From Acidobacteriaceae bacterium (GTDB taxonomy: Bacteria; Acidobacteriota; Terriglobia; Terriglobales; Acidobacteriaceae), in the NCBI GenBank assembly GCA_030041045.1, contig JASHOQ010000115.1:5702-69701 (forward strand): DNA of 64,000 bases. Reading direction: 5' to 3'. A program made the translations under genes and the position numbers. How positions within the stretch are numbered: position 1 is the stretch's first letter; each line of letters opens with the position of its first letter. The notes under the pieces are model-generated. The model saw only the letters and a list, made by a program, of their open reading frames with translations, was not told where the DNA came from and ran no database searches. Shown here in pieces: positions 3,196 through 49,912 of this stretch.

Positions 3196-3771
3196 ATGGC
3201 ATGGCGCGCCACTGTGTTTCTGCTCGGCTGCTTGTCCATGGTTGCGCGGGCTGCGGAGCCCTTCGGCACCGATCTGAACGGTCGTCCGATCGAGCAGATC
3301 GCGCCCGCAGGCGCCAAAGCGGTGGTGCTCTTTTTTGCCACATCGGATTGTCCCATTTCCAACCGCTATATCCCTGAGATCGAGCGGCTCGATCGCGAGT
3401 TTGCGCCCCAGGGCGTGCACTTCTGGTGGGTGTATCCGGATCCCGGAGACACGGCCGCGGTGGTTCGCCGCCACGATGAAGACTTCCAGATCCACGCCGA
3501 TCAGGTGCTCGACACGGAACAACGGCTCACGCGCATGGCGCACGCCACCACAACGCCGGAAGCCGCCGTCTTTCTTTCCACCGCCGCAGGATTGCATGAG
3601 GTGTACCGGGGACGCATCGACGACCGCTACCTCGCTCTCGGACAGGAACGGCCTGCGGCCACACGGCACGACCTGGAGCTGGCCATCCGCGCTGCGCTTG
3701 ACCATAGGCCCGCCGTAAAGCCGGGAGGTCCGGCAGTCGGCTGCTCCATTGTGCCCCGCAACGCGCCATGA
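3196..3771 (+). CDS. thioredoxin-fold (redoxin/SCO-like) secreted protein
   Basis: Signal peptide MAWRATVFLLGCLSMVARA. Motif VVLFFATSDCPISNRYIPEIERL resembles a redoxin fold with a single Cys. The stop overlaps the next ATG (ATGA at 3768-3771). Confidence 0.6.
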   Translation: MAWRATVFLLGCLSMVARAAEPFGTDLNGRPIEQIAPAGAKAVVLFFATSDCPISNRYIPEIERLDREFAPQGVHFWWVYPDPGDTAAVVRRHDEDFQIHADQVLDTEQRLTRMAHATTTPEAAVFLSTAAGLHEVYRGRIDDRYLALGQERPAATRHDLELAIRAALDHRPAVKPGGPAVGCSIVPRNAP

Positions 3772-6026
3772 GATTTCTGCGCTGCACAGCCCTTGCGCTC
3801 GTTGGCTGCGTCTTTCTCTCCTGGCTGCATCCGCGTCGCACGATGCGCGCAGCGCAGGTTCCGGCAGATCCCGGCGCAACCTCTCACTCAGCCCCACCCG
3901 CAGTCCCCGCCGTCACCTGGAGCCGGCAGATTGCGCCCCTCGTCTACCAGAACTGCGCCACCTGCCATCACCCCGGCGGCGGCGGACCGTTCAGCCTGCT
4001 CACCTATCAGGAGGCATTCCGGCACGGACCGCAGATGGCTCAGGTCACGCAGTCGCGCTATATGCCCCCGTGGCTGCCGGCACCCGGATATGGCGATTTT
4101 CTGGGCGCGCGCCGCCTGAGCGATGAGCAGATAGCGCTCATCCGTCGCTGGGTAGCGTCCGGGATGCCCGAAGGCGATGCGTCCATCGCCCCTCCGCCGC
4201 CGCACTATGACGCCACCTGGCAATTGGGAAAGCCCGATCTGATTCTCACCATCGAGCATCCGTACGCCCTGGCCGCAGGGGGAACCGACGTCTTTCGCAA
4301 CTTCGTCCTGCCCTATCCGCTCACCGCAACGCACTATATCCGCGCCATGCAGATTTTGCCCAGCGCGCCCCAGGTGGTGCATCACGCCAACGTGCTCATC
4401 GATCGCACGGCCTCGTTCCGACGCCGTCACCCCGCCGACTGGGAGGATGGAATTCCCGGCATGGAGCTGGAGCTCGATGCCGGCAACACTTTCGACCCCG
4501 ACAGCCATTTTCTTTTCTGGAAGCCGGATACGCCGGTGCTGGAAGAGCCCGCGGGAATGCCCTGGCGGCTCGATCCCGGCAACGATCTCATCCTCAATAT
4601 GCATCTGAAACCCAGCGGCAAGCCGGAAACCATCGGCGCGCAGATCGGTTTGTACTTCACGCCCGAGCCGGCCAGCAAGCATCCCATGCTGCTTGAGCTT
4701 GAAGATGACCGCGGCCTCGATATTCCCGCCGGCGACCGGAGCTTTCAAGTGCAGGATGAATTGGAGCTGCCGGTCGATGTGGACCTCTTCGGGATTTATC
4801 CCCACGCGCACTATCTCGGCAAAGAACTCGAGGGCTGGGCCATTCTGCCCGATGGGCGCAAGCAGTGGCTCATCCGGATTCCGGACTGGGACATCGATCG
4901 CCAGTCGGTCTATCGCTATCGCACTCCGGTTTTCCTGCCGCGCGGGACCGTGGTGCACATGCACTACGTCTACGACAACTCAGAGGACAACGTCCACAAT
5001 CCAAACACGCCGCCCATCCGCGTGCGCGCCGGCAACCGCTCCGTGGACGAAATGGCGCATCTGTGGCTCCAGGTTCTGCCCGTCAACACTGCCAAAGGAA
5101 GTCCCGATCCGCGCTTGCTGCTGGAAGAAGCCTGGATGGAACATCGCGCAAAGCGAAATCCCGGAGACTTGATTGCTTTATATAACCTCGCATCGGCACT
5201 GGCCGGCCTCGGCCGCTACGCCGAAGCCGCAGCCGATTATCGCCAGGTGCTGGCCGCGAATCCTCGCGACGCTCGCACCCTCAACAGCCTGGGCGCCGCA
5301 CTGGAAAACGCGGGAGACTCGTCCGCAGCCGAAAAAGAGTTTACGCAGGCCATAGCGCTCGGGCCCGACAACTGCGACGCGCAATTCAACCTGGCGGAAC
5401 TCGAGCTGAAGCGCAGCCAGTTCGCGCAAGCCGCGGAGCAGTTCCGCGACCTGCTGCGCAACTGCCCCGCCGATGCAGGGGCGCAAAGCGGCCTGGGCGT
5501 CGCCCTCTTGGGCGAAGGCGATTCCGCATCCGCAGAAGCAGAATTCGAGCACGCGCTCGATCTTGATCCCGCCAACTTCACTGCGCTCTATCACCTCGGC
5601 GAAATGGCCATCGAATCGGGTTCGCCGGAGCGCGCCGTCGAATTCCTGCAAAAAGCCTCCGCCCAGCGCCCTGACGACGTCGACACCCGCGAGCGCCTGG
5701 CCATGGCTTATGCGCAATCAGGCCGGCAAGCCGATGCCCTGACCCAATTGCGCGCAGCCGTGCAGCTCTCGCCCGGCGACGCCAATCTGCACGCGCTGCT
5801 CTCGCAGGTTCTTTCGGCAGCCGGCCAGTTGCAGCAGGCTATCGAGGAACAAAACCAGGCGCTGCATTTCGAACCGAACGACGCCGATGGCTGGAACAAC
5901 CTGGGCGTGCTCGAGGCGCGCTTGGGGCACACCGCCGCGGCGCGCGCCGATTTTGAACGCGCCTTGCAGCTCGCGCCCGATCATGCCCAGGCACGCGCCA
6001 ATCTGGCCCGGCTTCCCCGGCAATGA
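3768..6026 (+). CDS. cytochrome c domain + copper type-II (DBH/PHM-like) monooxygenase-like domain + TPR repeat protein
   Basis: CATCHHPGGGGPFSLLTY haem motif. His clusters VVHHANVL, NMHLKP and YPHAHYLGKE plus MHYVYDN resemble Cu-monooxygenase ligand sets. About 300 aa of TPR at the C-terminus. Confidence 0.7.
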   Translation: MRFLRCTALALVGCVFLSWLHPRRTMRAAQVPADPGATSHSAPPAVPAVTWSRQIAPLVYQNCATCHHPGGGGPFSLLTYQEAFRHGPQMAQVTQSRYMPPWLPAPGYGDFLGARRLSDEQIALIRRWVASGMPEGDASIAPPPPHYDATWQLGKPDLILTIEHPYALAAGGTDVFRNFVLPYPLTATHYIRAMQILPSAPQVVHHANVLIDRTASFRRRHPADWEDGIPGMELELDAGNTFDPDSHFLFWKPDTPVLEEPAGMPWRLDPGNDLILNMHLKPSGKPETIGAQIGLYFTPEPASKHPMLLELEDDRGLDIPAGDRSFQVQDELELPVDVDLFGIYPHAHYLGKELEGWAILPDGRKQWLIRIPDWDIDRQSVYRYRTPVFLPRGTVVHMHYVYDNSEDNVHNPNTPPIRVRAGNRSVDEMAHLWLQVLPVNTAKGSPDPRLLLEEAWMEHRAKRNPGDLIALYNLASALAGLGRYAEAAADYRQVLAANPRDARTLNSLGAALENAGDSSAAEKEFTQAIALGPDNCDAQFNLAELELKRSQFAQAAEQFRDLLRNCPADAGAQSGLGVALLGEGDSASAEAEFEHALDLDPANFTALYHLGEMAIESGSPERAVEFLQKASAQRPDDVDTRERLAMAYAQSGRQADALTQLRAAVQLSPGDANLHALLSQVLSAAGQLQQAIEEQNQALHFEPNDADGWNNLGVLEARLGHTAAARADFERALQLAPDHAQARANLARLPRQ

Positions 6027-40836: not shown

Positions 40837-40841
40837 AGAGG

Positions 40842-40918
40842 CAGGGGTCAGGTTTCAGGGATCAGGGATCAGGGATCAGAGGTCAGGGATCAGGGATCAG
40901 AGGTCTGGGATCAGGGTC
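40842..40918. repeat. heptamer tandem array (11 units, G-rich on + strand), single arm
   Basis: CAGGGGT CAGGTTT CAGGGAT x3 CAGAGGT CAGGGAT x2 CAGAGGT CTGGGAT CAGGGTC. Starts 6 nt after stop 40836 and ends 9 nt before ATG 40928. Confidence 0.9.
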
Positions 40919-40927
40919 GAAGCGGAA

Positions 40928-42289
40928 ATGAACGAATCCATAACGAAAAAGGCCAGGATGAAAACGGCACGTGCGCTTGCGGGTTATTTCGCGTTGAGTT
41001 TCTCGTTGTGCGCCGCCCTGGCGCACGCGGCCACGGTGAGCGGTACGGTGACGGACAAGACCACGGGCAAGCCCGCCGCCGGCGACGTGGTGGTGCTGCT
41101 CGACGTGCAGGCGGGCATGAGCGAAGCGGCGCACGCCGCCACCGACGCGCAGGGTCATTACTCCATCAGCGCGCCCGGCGACGGACCCTACCTGGTGCGC
41201 GTCACCCACCAGGGCGCGGGCTACTTCATCGCTGCGCCGCCCGGAGCGGCGTCGAGTCCCGGCGCCGGCGACATCGCCGTCTACGACGTGGCCGCCAAGG
41301 TGAGCGGCGTCTTCATCGAGGCCGACGTGATTGAGGCGGAAACCGACCCCAGCGGCGCGCTCAAAATCGACGAGCGCTACTACGTGCACAACACCAGCTC
41401 GCCGCCGGTCACGCAGTGGAGCCCGAAGTCGTTTTCCATTGTGCTGCCGGCCGATGCGCAGATCACTGACACCGGCGCGCAGCGGCCCAGCGGCCTGCCC
41501 ACCAGCGTGAAGATGGATCCCGACGGGCCCAAGGGCCACTACTCGTTCAATTTTCCCATCCAGCCCGACGACGGCGAAAGAGACACGATGTTCCAGATCG
41601 GTTACACGCTGCCGTACGCGGGCGACAAGTACACTTTCAAGCCGTCGATTACGCTGCCCGCCGACAACTTCGCCGTGTTGCTGCCCAAGTCCATGACCTT
41701 CACGCCCGGAGCGGGGCTGGAGTTCAAGCCCGTGAATGAGGACCCGAGCGTGCAGACATTTCTTTTGAAGAATCCGTCGCCGGGACAGGCGCTGGCCTTC
41801 ACTATCTCCGGCGAGGGCCAGATTCCGCGCCCGGCGCAGGGCGACAACGGCGCACAGGATGCAGGCGGACAAAGCGCCGCCGCGAACGGCCAGCCCGGCG
41901 GCGGCATCGGCGCACCCATTGACACGCCCGACCCGCTGAGCAAATACAAGTGGTGGATTCTGGGCGCGCTGGCGCTGCTGCTCGCCACCGCCGCGGCTTT
42001 CCTTCTGCGCCGGCCCGCGTTTGCCGTGGCGGGCGCGCCTGGATCCGCAGCGGCGGCCCCGTTTGCCCCGCAACCCGCGGCGGGTTCGTTTTCCGTGCAA
42101 CCCTCGGCGGCGGCAAGCGCAGTTGCGGTTGCGCCGGCGGCAAAAAATGCGGCCCTGCTGAACGTACTTAAGGACGAGCTCTTCGACCTTGAAAGCGAAA
42201 AAATTGCCGGCACGCTATCCGCCGCCGACTATGCCGAGCAAAAGGCCGCGCTGGAAGTGGTGCTGAAGCGGGCGTTGAAAAAACAGTGA
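40928..42289 (+). CDS. carboxypeptidase-regulatory-like domain protein with C-terminal TM anchor and CcmI-like tail
   Basis: Start moved to ATG 40928 (track ORF 40814.. reads through the repeat). Signal peptide, ATVSGTVTDKTTGKPAAGDVVVLL, TM WWILGALALLLATAAAFLL, tail LFDLESEKIAGTLSAADYAEQKAALE. Confidence 0.7.
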   Translation: MNESITKKARMKTARALAGYFALSFSLCAALAHAATVSGTVTDKTTGKPAAGDVVVLLDVQAGMSEAAHAATDAQGHYSISAPGDGPYLVRVTHQGAGYFIAAPPGAASSPGAGDIAVYDVAAKVSGVFIEADVIEAETDPSGALKIDERYYVHNTSSPPVTQWSPKSFSIVLPADAQITDTGAQRPSGLPTSVKMDPDGPKGHYSFNFPIQPDDGERDTMFQIGYTLPYAGDKYTFKPSITLPADNFAVLLPKSMTFTPGAGLEFKPVNEDPSVQTFLLKNPSPGQALAFTISGEGQIPRPAQGDNGAQDAGGQSAAANGQPGGGIGAPIDTPDPLSKYKWWILGALALLLATAAAFLLRRPAFAVAGAPGSAAAAPFAPQPAAGSFSVQPSAAASAVAVAPAAKNAALLNVLKDELFDLESEKIAGTLSAADYAEQKAALEVVLKRALKKQ

Positions 42290-42420
42290 TCAGGGGTCAG
42301 GGGTCAGGGGTCAGGGGTCAGCGAACAGTGGTCAGCCTACCGAGAGTCGCTTTCTGATCCCTGATCCCTATTCCCTGCTCTCCATTCCCTGACCCCTGAC
42401 CCCTGAAACCTGACCCCTGG
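42284..42420. repeat. heptamer arrays in inverted arms (8 + 9 units, 15-nt spacer), overlapping a stop codon
   Basis: CAGTGAT (CAGGGGT)x4 CAGCGAA CAGTGGT CAGCCTA / spacer / TGATCCC x2 TATTCCC TGCTCTC CATTCCC TGACCCC x2 TGAAACC TGACCCC. TGA 42287-42289 lies inside unit 1. Confidence 0.9.
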
Positions 42421-44679: not shown

Positions 44680-44876
44680 AGGCAGGGGTCAGGTTTCAGG
44701 GGTCAGGGGTCAGGGAGCAGTGGTCAGTGGTCAGTGATCAGAAATCAGCGATCCGAGATGGAATCAGCTTCTAGCTGTGGTCTGTTCCCTGTTACCTATT
44801 CCCTGCTTTCTTGATGGCTTCTTCCATTGGCTGCTTGCTTTCTGACCACTGACCACTGATCACTGACAACTGATTT
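44680..44876. repeat. composite heptamer array filling the whole ychF-ZIP intergenic region
   Basis: Shares the 22-mer AGGCAGGGGTCAGGTTTCAGGG with 40839-40860. Units CAGGGGT, CAGTGGT, CAGTGAT..., then CAGCTTC TAGCTGT, C-rich CTGTTCC/CTATTCC, then CTGACCA x2 CTGATCA CTGACAA. Confidence 0.9.
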
Positions 44877-44882
44877 CCAACC

Positions 44883-45608
44883 ATGCTCAAGCTCTCCCTT
44901 CTTCTCGGCGCGGTGGCGGCGCTGGCCGATGTGGCCGGCGGGTTAATCCTGGTGCGCGCGCGCGGCGTGGAGCGCTACCTGCGCTACTTTGTCGCCCTGG
45001 GCGCGGGATTCCTGATGGCCACGGCGCTGCTGGAGATGACGCCGGAGAGCCTGCGCATCAGCCCTCAGCTCGCGCCGGTGCTCATCATGGCCGGCTACTG
45101 CGCGGTTCATCTGCTGGAGCACACCATCAACGCGCATTTTCATTTCGGCGAGGAAACGCACGCGGGCGAGTTCGTCTCCCTGCACACCGGCTACTCCGTG
45201 CTCGGCGGCCTGAGCGTGCACGCGCTCTTTGACGGCGTGGCCATCGGCTCCGGATTTGTGGTTTCCGAATGGCTGGGCTGGCTGATCTTTCTCGCCATTT
45301 TGCTGCACAAGATGCCGGAGGGATTCACCATGGCTTCGGTGATGCTGGCGAGCGGGCGCAGCCGCACCACGGCGTTCTACTCGGCGGTGGTGCTGGCCGC
45401 GGCCACGCTGGCCGGCGTGCTTTTGATCGAACTGGTGCCGAGCTGGCTTTCGATCGGCCTGCCGGTCTCGGCCGGCGTGGCCATTTACGTGGCCGCTACC
45501 GATCTGGTGCCCGAGGTGAACCGCGAGCCCGGCATCCGCATGGCGCTGGTGTTTTTCCTGGGCGTGGCTGCGTTCCTGGTTCTGCGGCATGTGTTGCCGG
45601 CGTTGTAA
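44883..45608 (+). CDS. ZIP-family divalent metal transporter (ZupT-like)
   Basis: Eight TM pattern. HLLEHTINAHFHFGEE His-rich loop. HALFDGVAIG and HKMPEGF motifs. Confidence 0.9.
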   Translation: MLKLSLLLGAVAALADVAGGLILVRARGVERYLRYFVALGAGFLMATALLEMTPESLRISPQLAPVLIMAGYCAVHLLEHTINAHFHFGEETHAGEFVSLHTGYSVLGGLSVHALFDGVAIGSGFVVSEWLGWLIFLAILLHKMPEGFTMASVMLASGRSRTTAFYSAVVLAAATLAGVLLIELVPSWLSIGLPVSAGVAIYVAATDLVPEVNREPGIRMALVFFLGVAAFLVLRHVLPAL

Positions 45609-45638: not shown

Positions 45639-45647
45639 TCGGTTCAT

Positions 45648-45667
45648 GGTAGTGTCTCAGTTTGAAA
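45648..45667. repeat. left terminal inverted repeat of the transposon
   Basis: GGTAGTGTCTCAGTTTGAAA. Begins GGnnnTG like IS1 ends. Confidence 0.85.
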
Positions 45668-45771
45668 ATGACTCGAAATGGGGATGGCGAAGATATGGCG
45701 CAAAACTTTACTGTTGCCTTTAGAGTTTTTGTCGATAACAATGATGGGACCATCAAAGAATGGCGAAAATG

Positions 45772-46338
45772 CTACCCCAAAGCGTTTAGGACTTTTACCC
45801 CAGCAGGCGGAGAAAACTCGCCAATTTCCTCTGCCATCCCATAAGCAACGGCGTCCGAGCCGGTGAGGTAAACGTCATGGAAACGAAACTGAGTCCACAA
45901 ATCCTCGGGCAACCGAAGGTGAGCGCGCAGGATTTCCTCCATCCTGGCATCATCAATAGCGAGGTTGGCAGCGACGGCTTTCAGTTTGTCAACGCTCGCC
46001 CCATTGGGGGAATTAATGGCCTTGTGGATCATGAAAACAGCATTAGCAGTGGTCTTTCGGGAGTGGGCGCCAAGATAGGCAAGCGTGGCAGCAGAGGCAA
46101 CTTGGCCAGCGTTGTAGAGGACGACTTCTATGGCGAGCTTCTTTAGAGCGTTATAAAGAAAAACGCCGTCGCCGACAAAGCCGCCCCATGACTGAAACAA
46201 GATGTGAACGCGCTTAGTCCCAGCCGCAGATACTGTGGTTAATCCATTTATCAACTTGGCTCCGTTCGCGGCGTTTATATCGCCGCAATATGTCGCCCAG
46301 AGTTCCTCTGCGACGGGCTTCTTGGTTTCTTCTGGCAT
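45772..46338 (-). CDS. stand-alone ClpP-like (S14/Clp-fold) serine peptidase
   Basis: Start moved to ATG 46338. Candidate Ser-His-Asp triad contexts GQVASAATLAYLG, FMIHKA and LTGSDAVAYGMAEEI, in ClpP order. Lies 29 nt downstream of the transposase on the same strand. Confidence 0.7.
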   Translation of the reverse strand: MPEETKKPVAEELWATYCGDINAANGAKLINGLTTVSAAGTKRVHILFQSWGGFVGDGVFLYNALKKLAIEVVLYNAGQVASAATLAYLGAHSRKTTANAVFMIHKAINSPNGASVDKLKAVAANLAIDDARMEEILRAHLRLPEDLWTQFRFHDVYLTGSDAVAYGMAEEIGEFSPPAGVKVLNALG

Positions 46339-46367
46339 AGCGGAAATACTACACCTTTCCTCGGATT

Positions 46368-47201
46368 CTATTGAGCCAAGAATGCTATCTCTTCGTAGCT
46401 CCAAACGTGATCCGAGATGCCCGCAGCCATCGCGGGCGTAATTCTCAAGGTCTTGTGAATCCGAGCGAAGTTGTAGTGGATGAAATGCAGCGTAACCGCA
46501 GCCGCGTGATTTTCCACTTTCTTAGAGAACGCATTGGTTAAGCGTGTGAACCGGCGCATGCTCATCCGCATAGTCAAATTCTGGCGTTCCACAAAAGACG
46601 TACTCGCGTGCTTAGGGTCGGGATCGCCTGCCACGGTTTTCATATCCCAGCCGATGCACTTGGCTGGGCTGTAACGCCGCGTTTCCTCGTCTGTCGGAGC
46701 GCCGTAGATTTTCTGGAGCGTAGCAAAGTCCACATCGGCTCCGAACGCGTTTTCGACCGCTTCCAAATAGGCTTTGTGTCCATCAGTTGTCAGTTGCACC
46801 CGACCCTTCACGCGGCTGGCAACGTCCTGCATAAATTCGTTGGCCCACCATCCATCGCGGCCGCCCACAAGGTAGCTCACACAGAGCTTCGTATCGGCGT
46901 CAATCGCGGTCCAAGTCCAAGTGTCTCCCCATCCTTCCGCCTTGCGGTCGGGGCTGGCGTTCTTAGCCTTTGCCCCAACAAAGCACCAAATTTCGTCACA
47001 CTGGACCCGCTTGCAGCGCACGTCACGCACCGTCGCATCGTGGTATGCGTGTGCGGCGCTCGCCACGTCCAAGAGAAGCTTTGTGACGGTATTGATTGAA
47101 ACGTCCACGATCCGGCTGATGCTCCGAAGGCTAGTACCTTCGACGAGCATTTGGACGATTTGCGCCCGCTTAGCAAGTGGAAGTCTGTTCGTGACAAGCA
47201 T
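46368..47201 (-). CDS. IS1-family transposase (single ORF, ISMhu11-like)
   Basis: N-terminal HTH RAQIVQMLVEGTSLRSISRIVDVSINTV. DDE region QCDEIWCFVG...WTWTAIDADTKL...TTDGHKAY...ERQNLTMRMSMRRFTRLTNAFSKKVENH...HYNFARIH. Confidence 0.85.
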   Translation of the reverse strand: MLVTNRLPLAKRAQIVQMLVEGTSLRSISRIVDVSINTVTKLLLDVASAAHAYHDATVRDVRCKRVQCDEIWCFVGAKAKNASPDRKAEGWGDTWTWTAIDADTKLCVSYLVGGRDGWWANEFMQDVASRVKGRVQLTTDGHKAYLEAVENAFGADVDFATLQKIYGAPTDEETRRYSPAKCIGWDMKTVAGDPDPKHASTSFVERQNLTMRMSMRRFTRLTNAFSKKVENHAAAVTLHFIHYNFARIHKTLRITPAMAAGISDHVWSYEEIAFLAQ

Positions 47202-47315
47202 AATATTCAGTTTGATTCTAAGTGTCAAGCATAAAGTTCACTTTGAGGACTTAGACTCGCTATTACTGAGATATTCTCATCTTTAACTGATACCTTTGGT
47301 GCTTATACTGAGACA

Positions 47316-48596
47316 ATGGGTGAGGGGATGGATATGCCACTCGATTACGAGGACCTGGTCACACGAGCAACCACTGTCTTTCAGCCACGGACGCCGATCA
47401 CAACGCGTGATCTGTTTGCTGGCCGCTGGAATGAGTTGATGGCGGTTGTCGATGCGGTTAATCAGATTGGTCTGCACGCCGTAATCTATGGTGAACGCGG
47501 CGTCGGGAAAACCTCCCTGGCTAATGTTGTGGCTCCGACGGTTTACGCGATGGATGATCCAAGCCCGACTGCGCCCCTCAATCCCAAAGGGCGAGTAATT
47601 GTCAAAACGGTGGCGACTACTTCGGACACTTTTGCTTCGGTGTGGGTCAAACTCTTTAAAGACATTACGCTGATTGATGATCGACCTGTAGCTGGTTTCT
47701 TCCCTGGCCAAAAGGGACGAGTGTCGCTGCTAGAAGCTTACGGTCTAGATTCAAATCTCTCAGTCGATGACATTCGGCGGGTGATTAGCAATATTCCGAA
47801 TTCGGTGTTCATAGTGGATGAGTTCGATCGACTGCAGCCTGCATCAATGAAAGAGTTTACCGACCTGATTAAGACCCTATCCGATTTTTCGGTGAATTCC
47901 ACGGTCGTTTTGGTAGGAGTTTCCGATACCATCGCCAATCTTGTTGCTGACCATGCTTCAATTGTGCGCGCAATTTCACAGGTATTTCTTAGGAGAATGC
48001 TACCGATTGAGTTGAGGAAAATTCTTACGAACGCCGAAGAGAAACTTGGCATCCATTTCACCGATGACGCCGCTCGTCTCATTGTTCATGTTTCGCAGGG
48101 TTTGCCGCACTATACGCACCTGATTGGCCTTCATGCTGTTCGGGTGGCAGCAGACGCGTACACCGCTCCGACCATTTCACGCAAAGATGTATTTGTGGCC
48201 TTGGATCGGGCTACTACTCAGGCTGAGCAAAGCACTAGGAACAGGCATTCAAGGGCTATTCACAGTTCACACAAAGATGCGCTATATCGGCAAATTCTTT
48301 TAGCGTGTGCAGTGGCCGCTGCTCAAGAACAAGACCCACTAGGGTATTTCACCCCGAGCGCAGTGATTGAACCACTTAGTGCGATTCTGGGCCGTCTAGT
48401 AGAGATTGCAACATTTAATTCCCATTTGAGCGCATTCTCTCAACTAGAACGTGGAAATGTGCTAGAACGAGACGGCCAGCCGCGGGCATATCGATTTAGA
48501 TTTCAAGACCCGATGGTGGTTCCATTTACCTTCATGGACGCGGTCGCAAACGGGATTGTCGATGAAGATCACCTTGCGAGACTTTTGAACGACTAG
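47316..48596 (+). CDS. ORC/Cdc6-like AAA+ ATPase with C-terminal winged-helix-like region
   Basis: Walker A IYGERGVGKTSLANVV, Walker B VFIVDEFDRL and sensor-like VLVGVSD. About 150-aa C-terminal helical domain. Confidence 0.8.
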   Translation: MGEGMDMPLDYEDLVTRATTVFQPRTPITTRDLFAGRWNELMAVVDAVNQIGLHAVIYGERGVGKTSLANVVAPTVYAMDDPSPTAPLNPKGRVIVKTVATTSDTFASVWVKLFKDITLIDDRPVAGFFPGQKGRVSLLEAYGLDSNLSVDDIRRVISNIPNSVFIVDEFDRLQPASMKEFTDLIKTLSDFSVNSTVVLVGVSDTIANLVADHASIVRAISQVFLRRMLPIELRKILTNAEEKLGIHFTDDAARLIVHVSQGLPHYTHLIGLHAVRVAADAYTAPTISRKDVFVALDRATTQAEQSTRNRHSRAIHSSHKDALYRQILLACAVAAAQEQDPLGYFTPSAVIEPLSAILGRLVEIATFNSHLSAFSQLERGNVLERDGQPRAYRFRFQDPMVVPFTFMDAVANGIVDEDHLARLLND

Positions 48597-48831
48597 GGCC
48601 ATTGCTCTTGGCTTTTCCATACCAGCGGGCTTCCGCGGCTTTCACCGCAATGGACTTCCGTTGCTCCTCGGACAACTTGGCCGCTCGCACAGCAGCTCCC
48701 TTGACTCCCCCCGCCCTGCCTCGAACATGGGGATTCCGTTTGGCGGCACTGACCGGGTCATCCAGGCCCTCTGTCGCAATTTCAACGACCATCTTTGCGA
48801 GTTGGTTCGGATCACGCGGGCGCTTCGGCAT
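48532..48831 (-). CDS. small basic protein (99 aa), function unknown
   Basis: MPKRPRDPNQLAKMVVEIATEG...GRAGGVKGAAVRAAKLSEEQRKSIAVKAAEARW resembles a widespread small basic protein type (recollection). Its 3' end overlaps the ATPase gene by 65 nt (convergent). Confidence 0.5.
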   Translation of the reverse strand: MPKRPRDPNQLAKMVVEIATEGLDDPVSAAKRNPHVRGRAGGVKGAAVRAAKLSEEQRKSIAVKAAEARWYGKAKSNGPSRSKVSQGDLHRQSRLRPRP

Positions 48832-48876
48832 GTCTCAAGTTTGCCTGACTGGGTTAAGCACCGCAACCCCCTACGC

Positions 48877-48896
48877 TTTCAAACTGAGACACTACC
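48877..48896. repeat. right terminal inverted repeat of the transposon
   Basis: TTTCAAACTGAGACACTACC followed by the duplicated CGGTTCAT. Confidence 0.85.
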
Positions 48897-48926
48897 CGGT
48901 TCATGGCAGATTGGCGGGCGTGCTGT

Positions 48927-49029: not shown

Positions 49030-49845
49030 TCAATTCCCCAGGTTCGCGCTCACTGCGCGCGAGCGGCCCAGTCCGACCTTCCACGCATAGAGGCGCGCCA
49101 GCAGCTTGCCGTAATCCCACGCCACTTTGAAGTTGGCCTTGCTGGCGCCGCGATAACGGCTGCCGAAGACGAACGGCACCTCCTGCATAGTGCCGAGCCG
49201 CGCACGCACCAGGATTTCCAGCAGCAGCTTGAAGCCGGCGCGCTGGAATTCGATCTGATTCACGGCCGCGCGCCGCACCAGGAAGAAACCGGACATGGGA
49301 TCCCGGGCACGCAGCTTGCGCCGCTGCAGCGGCAAGGTAGCCCAGACAGCCGCGGCCGAAAGCAGCTTGCGCAAGGGATGCCATCCGCCCAGCCCGCCGC
49401 CCGGCGTATAGCGGCTGCCGATGGCCAGGTCGCGCCCTTCGGCGATGGCCGCATAGAGTTCCCGCAAAAGCTCCGGCGGATGCTGCAGGTCGGCATCCAT
49501 CACACCCAGCACCGGGGCGTCAGTCGCGCGCCAGCCATCGAGTACGGCGCCGGAAAGCCCGCGCTCGCCCGTGCGCACGATCAGGCGCACGCGCTCGTCC
49601 TCCGCGGCAATCCTCGAAACCACCTCGCTCGTGCCGTCGGGGCTGTCGTCGTCCACCACGATGATCTCGTAGTCGATCTCGAGGGGATCCAGGGCCGCGC
49701 GCACCATGCCGAGGACGCGGGCAATGTTTTCCGCTTCACACAGTGTGGGAATGACCAGAGCCAGCTTCAGGCGCGCGCACTCAGACACGCCACCGGAGCT
49801 CCGGAGGCTCGCAGCGTGCACCGGTTCTCGAATCGGCAGCGACAT
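49030..49845 (-). CDS. GT2 polyprenol-phosphate mannosyl/glycosyl transferase (Dpm1/Ppm1-like)
   Basis: Start moved to ATG 49845. LALVIPTLCEAENI...IIVVDDDSPDGT...VMDADLQHPPE... Confidence 0.85.
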   Translation of the reverse strand: MSLPIREPVHAASLRSSGGVSECARLKLALVIPTLCEAENIARVLGMVRAALDPLEIDYEIIVVDDDSPDGTSEVVSRIAAEDERVRLIVRTGERGLSGAVLDGWRATDAPVLGVMDADLQHPPELLRELYAAIAEGRDLAIGSRYTPGGGLGGWHPLRKLLSAAAVWATLPLQRRKLRARDPMSGFFLVRRAAVNQIEFQRAGFKLLLEILVRARLGTMQEVPFVFGSRYRGASKANFKVAWDYGKLLARLYAWKVGLGRSRAVSANLGN

Positions 49846-49912
49846 AGAAAGATGCGATAATTCTATCGCCGGAAACCCTCTCCTGAACAGGCGCAAAGGG
49901 AGCTCAAGACGT

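Follow-up and report, generated by a model that had tools for sequence, protein, structure and literature searches.

We analyzed a 64,000-nucleotide window of an Acidobacteriaceae bacterium genome (contig JASHOQ010000115.1 of GenBank assembly GCA_030041045.1, positions 5,702 to 69,701 of the forward strand; all coordinates below are those of this window), in which a small mobile element carries four genes, encoding an IS1-family transposase, a ClpP-fold peptidase, a Cdc6/Orc1-like AAA+ ATPase and a small basic protein. A pattern search found an exact 20-nt inverted repeat, GGTAGTGTCTCAGTTTGAAA, at 45648–45667 (+) and 48877–48896 (−), with no further copies in the window, and two such matches arose in none of 100 shuffled sequences. 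These terminal inverted repeats (TIRs), the former at the transposase-distal, ClpP-like end and the latter at the small-protein end, are flanked by an 8-bp direct repeat, CGGTTCAT, which we read from the sequence as a target-site duplication with its left copy at 45640–45647 and an identical right copy at 48897–48904. Because exact TIRs stand here between direct repeats, we take the mobile unit to be 45648–48896, an intact element of 3249 bp. The original prediction for this locus placed the genes inside TIRs, and the exact repeats and the duplication indeed enclose all four; its interval of 45772–48831 spanned every gene but missed the element ends. IS1 ends start with GGT and IS1 target duplications measure 8–9 bp, and the window element matches on both counts, with perfect 20-nt TIRs starting GGT and the 8-bp CGGTTCAT. 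GC content is 50–54% within this 3.2-kb island versus 62–65% in its surroundings (composition scan), and the insertion site lies between a ZIP-family transporter gene (44883–45608, +) and a glycosyltransferase gene (49030–49896, −). The element was probably inserted recently. Promoter and terminator scans returned counts no higher than in shuffled sequence, and a single strong −35/−10 match that overlaps the transposase start is not relied on here.

The transposase gene (46368–47201, −) encodes an IS1-family DDE protein with an N-terminal helix-turn-helix (HTH), 277 aa long when read from the ATG at 47201 and 286 aa in the longer open reading frame (ORF) that starts at a TTG at 47228. It passes the Pfam model PF03400 (33.0 bits, cutoff 24.1) and matches the NCBIfam equivalog NF033558 at 3.4e-19, but with 69.6 bits it stays below that model's cutoff of 100; more than 8000 of its homologues bear the name 'IS1 family transposase'. 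Residues D78, D149 and E214, together with R221, are invariant across 96 aligned relatives, and thus the DDE triad is intact. One YhaV-carrying sister element (L083–L090, ~5142–5968 in L083 coordinates) has its transposase in two frames, covering aa 11–98 and 86–286, and lacks a matching target duplication. This split resembles the insA/insB' programmed frameshift of IS1 and could be one, and it could equally be a pseudogene.

Just inside the right-hand TIR, on the transposase strand, lies the gene for a conserved small basic protein of 99 aa (48532–48831, −). It is convergent with the ATPase gene and overlaps it by 65 nt at the 3' ends, much as the original prediction of a Lys/Arg-rich protein overlapping the ATPase gene had it. 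Relatives are ~75–100 aa long and share the consensus KRPRDPNQLAKxIVDIATGE...GGLKGGKARAxKLTPExRSxIAKKAAxARW, and we found no match to this protein in Pfam, NCBIfam or the PDB. A family hidden Markov model (HMM) recovered it at the same end in 38–40 of 49 related elements (delimited below), whatever cargo these carry, and we therefore assign it to the core of the element family, in which it is nearly universal, and not to the cargo, where it had first been counted. It may have an InsA-like regulatory or end-binding role. A repeat search also revealed two 25-nt direct repeats (47191–47246), 84% identical, that overlap the transposase start and the divergent control region, and each holds both TIR half-sites, GTG(A/T)C and TCA(G/C)TTTGA, with ~11 extra bases between them. 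Of 48 elements, 17 have a TIR-like 9-mer close to the transposase start, where ~4 would be expected, and in several relatives it sits at about −19 or −54 from the start of the transposase ORF. These repeats are a possible autoregulatory operator, which either the small protein or the transposase might bind.

The ClpP-fold serine peptidase gene (45772–46338, −; 188 aa) follows the transposase on the same strand. The mechanically called ORF runs over 45772–46404 (−) from a TTG at 46404, and we place the start at the ATG at 46338 because homologues are 188 aa long; this ATG lies 29 nt past the transposase stop at 46368, the same spacing that was first proposed. The protein matches Pfam CLP_protease at 4.4e-16 and fails both the ClpP equivalog TIGR00493 (30 bits, cutoff 308.6) and the ClpP-related head-maturation model NF045542 (64 bits, cutoff 120). 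Its family forms ~200 clusters, almost all from Acidobacteriaceae/Terriglobales, and every sequence of the family alignment has Ser82 and His105, with Asp155 shared by at least 90% of them, a pattern that agrees with the plausible Ser/His/Asp contexts noted originally. The AlphaFold2 model (pLDDT 86) aligns by Foldseek to ClpP structures at TM 0.72–0.85 and ~20% identity, and the closest structures to the modelled fold are cellular ClpP, the long handle helix included. The ORF listing holds no ClpX, ClpA or ClpC gene in or beside the element, so that the reported lack of an unfoldase partner stands, and neither the window nor the ClpP-like loci examined contain phage structural genes (capsid, portal, scaffold). 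We also observed that a C-terminal tail, EFSPPxGVKVLNALG (residues ~173–188 of the window protein), is near-invariant in the family and lies beyond the regions matched by Pfam CLP_protease and the NCBIfam ClpP models; this peptide could serve in docking or regulation.

Divergent from the transposase, the remaining gene (47334–48596, +) encodes a stand-alone Cdc6/Orc1-like AAA+ ATPase of 420 aa with a C-terminal winged helix, or 426 aa if the ORF is read from the ATG at 47316. The Walker A (GERGVGKTS) and Walker B (IVDEFD) motifs are present, and the description of an initiator-clade ATPase with a winged-HTH-like tail is borne out by the model (AlphaFold2, pLDDT 87, pTM 0.82), which consists of an AAA+ base, a lid and a C-terminal winged helix. 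At the sequence level, Pfam nSTAND1, AAA_22 and AAA_16 all score slightly over their cutoffs and give no specific assignment; nSTAND1 reaches 38.8 bits (cutoff 27.1) over profile positions 13–217 of 379 only, and AAA and KAP_NTPase also pass. The tripartite architecture of STAND proteins (effector plus sensor repeats) is absent, as the 420-aa chain ends in the winged helix and has no extra domains. Among PHROG profiles the protein matches phrog_6841 (2.5e-46). More than 1100 close homologues exist, and an exhaustive search at E<=1e-30 gave a family of 518 clusters at 50% identity, nearly all of them stand-alone proteins of 400–430 aa. The top Foldseek matches are Cdc6/Orc1 structures (1fnn, 2qby, 7jgr, 1w5t; ~1e-9, TM 0.45–0.53, identity 12–16%, over ~420–450 columns), followed by RuvB, RFC and CED-4, and the best PDB sequence match of the family profile is the RuvB lid (E 0.002). 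Neither Pfam nor NCBIfam yields an ORC/Cdc6 match, and no origin-associated context was seen. Similarity to transposition helpers is faint: TniB matches at E 0.0048 (16.8 bits, below its cutoff of 22.4), a PHROG 'DNA transposition protein' at E 0.0068 over the P-loop only, and IstB not at all in Pfam. The structural comparison proposed at the outset, with IstB/TnsC on one side and ClpP on the other, thus upheld the ClpP fold of the peptidase but placed no IstB, TnsC or MuB structure among the top 50 fold matches of the ATPase.

To place these genes in the context of related elements, we surveyed the best 80 matches of each scan, namely 80 metagenome loci whose transposases are 60–84% identical to that of the window and 80 genomic ATPase loci searched for the other three window proteins, together with the window copy and five related protein clusters for the ClpP-like gene; because ORF calling was mechanical and the clustering was BLAST-based, the fractions given are approximate. 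Over all loci, TIRs delimited 55 elements (49 non-redundant) of 2.1–5.3 kb, with exact 8-bp duplications in 41 of the 49. Their ends are GGTAGTGNNTCAGTTTG-type TIRs, and the consensus GGTAGTG(G/T)(G/C)TCAGTTTGA that describes the window's repeats also delimits relatives from many phyla, the lineage spanning Acidobacteriota, Planctomycetota, Proteobacteria, Nitrospirota, Actinomycetota and others. A common plan emerges: TIR, small protein, cargo slot 1, transposase, an optional cargo slot 2, and TIR. The small-protein gene lies ~15–80 nt inside its end on the transposase strand (with a BLAST-detectable homologue in ~35 of the 80 transposase loci), slot 1 is mostly on the opposite strand, and slot 2 directly follows the transposase. 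The ATPase of the window occupies slot 1 and the ClpP-like gene slot 2.

The contents of these slots vary widely among sister elements. Slot 1 holds, in different elements, a complete RosmerTA pair (RmrA at 1.4e-139 over full length, RmrT at 4.9e-19), PD-Lambda-2_B-like HTH-peptidase proteins (2.8e-49) with a partner ORF, a HEC-04/OLD-type ABC ATPase (2.4e-47), an N6/N4 methylase fused to Mrr_cat, Fic, a Ser/Thr kinase, HATPase_c with DUF4325, an SDH-type ClpP-like protease, YhaV with a small ORF upstream, and a second, AAA_16 ATPase that is a distant relative of the window's (hhalign probability 96% against the ATPase profile). Slot 2 holds a proteasome-like protein in 4 elements and, in others, dCTP-deaminase-like, NYN and endonuclease VII-like proteins, SocA/Panacea with a 148-aa ORF, or the ClpP-like gene. 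The anti-phage activity of RosmerTA has been validated by experiment (bioRxiv 10.1101/2022.05.11.491447), and because it and genes like those above sit in these positions, we regard the slots as populated by conflict genes.

Peptidases are strikingly frequent among the cargoes, and include ClpP-like (window, 45772–46338), SDH-type ClpP-like, proteasome (Ntn)-like and HTH-M78 (ImmA/IrrE-type) proteins, at loci L125, L120, L121 and L129 in slot 2 and L143 in slot 1; PADLOC returned nothing for the proteasome-like family (~328 aa, 4 elements). In L076 (5089–5141) the right end is doubled, with two TIRs 35 nt apart, each followed by the same 8-bp target, GCCCCACG. Locus L040 (5587–11054) contains a 5.5-kb element that ends in the common TIR and is flanked by the 8-bp duplication CATTTTCA; its ATPase match is truncated, broken up over residues 44–425, and stands 1.5 kb away from the transposase, an arrangement that suggests a nested insertion or rearrangement within slot 1.

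We then evaluated how tightly the ATPase, the transposase and the peptidase are linked. An IS1-like transposase lies directly upstream of, and divergent from, 15–16 of the 80 ATPase genes. This placement does not vary, and the loci span at least eight phyla, with hosts in Acidobacteriota, Planctomycetota, Alpha- and Betaproteobacteria (a cultured Mesorhizobium among them), Nitrospirota, Solirubrobacterales, Aminicenantales and others. In most of these loci the small protein is downstream and convergent, and the units end in the same TIR consensus and 8-bp duplications. A further ~8 ATPase loci retain a TIR or a transposase relic only, and ~56 of the 80 (~70%) have neither transposase nor TIR. 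Among the closest relatives, the locus of an ATPase 86% identical to the window's (L180) has no IS. Conversely, the ATPase occurs in 4 of the 80 transposase-centred loci, in copies that are distant (31–34% identity). IS-linked ATPases are scattered over the ATPase tree, as ATPase-bearing transposases are over the transposase tree, and the pairwise distances of the two proteins are uncorrelated in rank (Spearman −0.003; Mantel r 0.25). A single ancient capture of the ATPase followed by co-diversification with the transposase is rejected by this lack of rank correlation, and since the distances are uncorrelated and the trees interspersed, we conclude that the association has been repeatedly made and broken.

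The peptidase follows a similarly loose pattern. In the window and three of the five related clusters (L083–L092, L099), the ClpP-like gene lies 15–29 nt downstream of the same transposase family (55–92% identity), and slot 1 of these relatives holds YhaV/PrlF-like genes or assorted small ORFs. In a fourth cluster (L093–L095, ~3720–5570), an 81%-identical gene lies behind a transposase of the IS1595 family and an ORF of 50 aa, directly adjoining the 3' end of a tRNA gene; no TIR pair was found at this IS1595-linked locus in L094, the TIR-like match there being the 3' part of the tRNA gene. The fifth has no transposase beside the gene. Outside the window, the ATPase and the ClpP-like gene were found together in none of the 80 ATPase loci, none of the 80 transposase loci and none of the ClpP-like loci examined. 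The nearest ATPase-bearing relative of the window element (L184; ATPase 76%, transposase 83%, same TIR, 3571 bp, small protein present) carries SocA/Panacea and a 148-aa ORF in slot 2 in place of the ClpP-like gene. Because each gene recurs without the other, we regard the two as independent passengers that are dispensable to the backbone. The question raised with the original prediction, whether both genes co-occur with this transposase family and always lie within TIRs, thus receives a divided answer: the ATPase does so in some loci but not always, and in no other locus examined is the ClpP-like gene accompanied by the ATPase.

Homologues of the ATPase are also found in phages and plasmids. 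Mycobacterium phage Kevin1 gp30 (L186, 4923–6191) is 37% identical over 96% of the ATPase, and Gordonia phage Cashline gp34 (L187, 5007–6209) is a full-length homologue at 35% identity; in both temperate phages the gene sits between structural/lysis genes and integrase/immunity genes, and in Kevin1 specifically between the lysis cassette and the integrase/repressor, beside a HicB-like antitoxin. Kevin1 gp30 is described as an orpham in the unique central variable region of Cluster N (PMC6544188), the region to which all characterised Cluster N prophage defences map and which is expressed in lysogens (bioRxiv 10.1101/2023.01.03.522681). On the Salinibacter ruber plasmid pSR31 (L081, 2228–5197), a homologue of 40% identity is divergent from an ISL3-family transposase, with a tyrosine recombinase nearby, and this second transposase family argues that the ATPase is cargo and not a family-specific helper. 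As a separate observation, distant full-length homologues (27% identity, annotated 'AAA family ATPase') occur in 63 Yersinia plasmid records (Yersinia pestis pMT1-type) and also in Enterobacter.

Taken together, we interpret the window element at 45648–48896 as an IS1-family transporter IS (an insertion sequence with passenger genes inside its inverted repeats), with a core of transposase and small protein and with the ATPase and the peptidase as separate passengers. The transporter IS concept has been applied to the IS1 and IS1595 families (PMC3129680, citing Siguier et al. 2009), and here both passengers lie inside the inverted repeats of a single-transposase IS and are replaced by other genes in sister elements. 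We hold this architecture and the passenger status of both genes with high confidence, and the sister elements show that neither gene should be needed for transposition of the lineage. What the passengers do is less certain: by analogy with the other occupants of the slots, a defence or conflict function is an even bet for the ATPase and falls short of that for the peptidase. Weighing architecture and conflict function together, we give the whole explanation a probability of about 0.72.

Mechanistically, the ATPase would act as an autonomous, ATP-dependent, DNA-binding and oligomerising switch on foreign DNA, built from its base, lid and winged helix, and would serve in genetic conflict through defence against, or exclusion of, phages or other mobile DNA. 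The ClpP-like protein would be an active, self-compartmentalising serine peptidase, presumably co-transcribed with the transposase, and may belong to the same class of conflict cargo. Exchange of cargo would proceed by recombination across the conserved flanks, that is, the small-protein gene, the transposase gene and the TIRs. On this basis the elements look like small shuttles for defence genes.

Several points weigh against this interpretation. The profile searches against Pfam and PADLOC that had been suggested for these proteins, and those against NCBIfam and PHROGs, matched no defence or helper family: PADLOC-DB v2 gave no significant match for the ATPase (best E ~0.002, PDC-S59 and Cas3c) and none for the ClpP-like protein, nor for the transposase or the small protein. 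The ATPase has no effector domain, and an obvious defence mechanism is thus lacking; its link to defence is one of guilt by association, drawn from the IS slots and the phage locus. Clustering of all neighbours in the 80 ATPase loci found no conserved gene common to the transposase-less loci, and Pfam annotation of 104 nearest neighbours found no recurrent partner or defence-island signal there but mostly housekeeping genes. That 20 or more elements from many phyla have the ATPase at this position could still mean that it facultatively benefits the element. In addition, the survey fractions are approximate, cargo swapping by recombination is inferred from mosaicism, and a literature search found no description of this IS1-type lineage, of which named relatives may exist in ISfinder, where an IS1 subgroup of up to 4.6 kb may be listed.

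The strongest alternative is that the passengers serve the element and not the host, through addiction, stabilisation, control of copy number or replication of an excised form, or exclusion of competitors, with no anti-phage role. Such a role would suit the several sister cargoes that belong to classic toxin-antitoxin types (YhaV, Panacea, Fic), the replication-initiator (Cdc6/Orc1) fold of the ATPase, and the location of transposase-less ATPases outside defence islands. However, many chromosomes have kept an intact ATPase gene on its own after the transposase was lost, suggesting host-level selection; experimentally validated anti-phage systems are among the sister cargoes, and a prophage defence locus houses the phage homologues. 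A module can moreover have both a toxin-antitoxin and a defence role, and we consider a purely element-serving function unlikely.

A role of the ATPase as an accessory transposition protein in the elements that carry it, acting in target choice or strand transfer in the manner of IstB, TniB/TnsC or MuB, was the first of the two functions originally proposed. Its appeal comes from the recurrence of the gene, divergent beside the transposase and in the same position, at no fewer than 20 loci in many phyla, and from the weak TniB similarity, the AAA_22 membership and the AAA+ plus winged-helix architecture. Yet helpers of this kind would be expected to accompany and co-evolve with their transposase, and here 76 of 80 related transposases do without the ATPase, in elements that retain perfect TIRs and 8-bp duplications, and ~70% of ATPase genes are intact with no transposase nearby. 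Nor is the protein a member of the IstB_IS21/TniB families, nor do its top 50 fold matches include a helper; it shows no co-diversification with the transposase, its slot is filled elsewhere by RosmerTA, restriction-type and toxin-antitoxin genes, and its homologues turn up within defence loci of phages and next to a transposase of the ISL3 family. We therefore judge a helper ATPase for IS1 to be an attractive idea that is very probably wrong on this evidence, and replace it with the passenger interpretation.

The second function originally proposed, a defence or addiction cassette of ATPase and protease riding on the IS, survives in part. Cargo on an IS, possibly for defence or addiction, is what slots with RosmerTA, PD-Lambda-2_B-like, HEC-04 and toxin-antitoxin genes would lead one to expect, but a single two-component system (IetAS-like, or a Clp/Lon-like defence or addiction system) is a poor fit. 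The two genes do share one element; a protease of the ClpP fold normally depends on an AAA+ partner, ClpX/ClpA genes are absent from the surroundings, and the ATPase has a very weak match to the IetA P-loop (E 0.023). Against this, the genes are together in no other locus examined, the very outcome that had been named in advance as a refutation, and they lie on opposite strands in different slots; L184 has Panacea in the peptidase's place, and ClpP-like-bearing relatives have YhaV or other genes in the ATPase's. The ATPase also resembles a Cdc6/Orc1 DNA-binding switch and not a Clp/Hsp100-type unfoldase, and we give such a joint system hardly any credence. Finally, a prophage remnant, with the ClpP-like protein as head-maturation protease and the ATPase as a phage replication or packaging gene, is effectively refuted: ClpP-related head-maturation proteases are the peptidase's best hits in NCBIfam (1.5e-17) and PHROG (3e-15), and the ATPase matches phrog_6841, but the head-maturation score is 64 against 120 bits, capsid, portal, terminase and other phage genes are absent, the peptidase is structurally nearest cellular ClpP, and the unit is a 3.25-kb element with IS1-type TIRs and a duplication between ZIP transporter and glycosyltransferase genes.

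ISs are usually treated as bare transposase genes, and here an IS of 2–5 kb carries one or two interchangeable genes, many of them anti-phage or toxin-antitoxin genes. If this holds generally, the smallest autonomous mobile elements help spread immune genes, and slot genes without known function (the ATPase family, the ClpP-like and proteasome-like peptidases and unannotated ORFs) become well-motivated defence candidates, by the same logic that made defence islands productive; the role of accessory genes in transporter ISs, a long-standing question, would become directly testable. A bolder version, which we offer only tentatively and think somewhat less likely to be right than wrong, is that IS1-type elements are widespread, overlooked miniature defence shuttles whose two cargo slots serve as a platform for discovery, that the ATPase is a new single-gene anti-phage or anti-plasmid system that binds foreign DNA in an ATP-dependent way, that the slot peptidases are new immunity or counter-immunity factors, and that the small protein is a new regulator of the IS1 lineage. 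Transporter ISs themselves are already known, as is defence cargo on larger transposons and in prophage variable regions; what appears new in the searchable literature, ISfinder aside, is the IS1-type two-slot plan, the conserved small protein and a defence-rich cargo in which a Cdc6-like ATPase is frequent.

Elsewhere in the window, we observed intergenic tandem arrays of G-rich heptamers (CAGGGAT, TCAGGGG, CAGGGGT) at 40837–40916, 42282–42336, 42354–42419, 44683–44748 and 44842–44873, paired with complementary arrays (CTGATCC, CTGACCA) some tens of bases away. Such pairs would form long imperfect intergenic hairpins and may represent a genome-specific repeat or a terminator-like element.

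Compared with known systems, the element is closest to the transporter ISs, with a transposase that is IS1-family by Pfam and passengers inside the inverted repeats, and it differs from them in its two-slot plan, its conserved extra small protein and a cargo made up mostly of defence and toxin-antitoxin genes. With classical IS1 (insA/insB') it shares the transposase family and a small gene that lies inside one inverted repeat on the transposase strand, positioned like insA. It is larger, however (3.2 kb versus ~0.77 kb), one ORF encodes the whole transposase, HTH included, and cargo is placed between the small gene and the transposase; InsA has a zinc finger, whereas the small protein here lacks cysteines. 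Like IstB of IS21, TniB/TnsC of Tn5053/Tn7 and MuB, the ATPase is an AAA+ protein beside a DDE transposase within an element, of the AAA_22 clan and with a faint TniB match. Unlike them, it is divergent, replaceable, not obligatorily linked and alone in most loci, and its closest folds are Cdc6/Orc1, RuvB and RFC. The model suggests that it shares the whole-length base, lid and winged-helix architecture of Orc1/Cdc6, from which it differs in its low identity (12–16%), in falling outside the ORC/Cdc6 sequence families, and in being a bacterial protein of mobile elements and phages with no replication-origin context. The peptidase has the fold, handle helix, Ser-His-Asp triad and CLP_protease match of ClpP (S14), and departs from both ClpP and phage prohead proteases in its ~20% identity, in scores far below both cutoffs, in its own C-terminal motif and in having no unfoldase or capsid gene nearby; at the loci examined its gene was in every case IS cargo or located in a variable region. 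RosmerTA, PD-Lambda-2 and HEC-04 bear no sequence relation to the ATPase or the ClpP-like protein, and what they lend is guilt by position, occupying in sister elements the slot held by the ATPase in the window. Tn7-like elements carry defence cargo, and both they and the Cluster N variable region resemble the present lineage in combining a conserved mobile backbone with a swappable locus for defence and toxin-antitoxin genes. In contrast to Tn7-like elements, prophages and satellites, the vehicle here is a minimal IS of 2–5 kb with one or two cargo genes.

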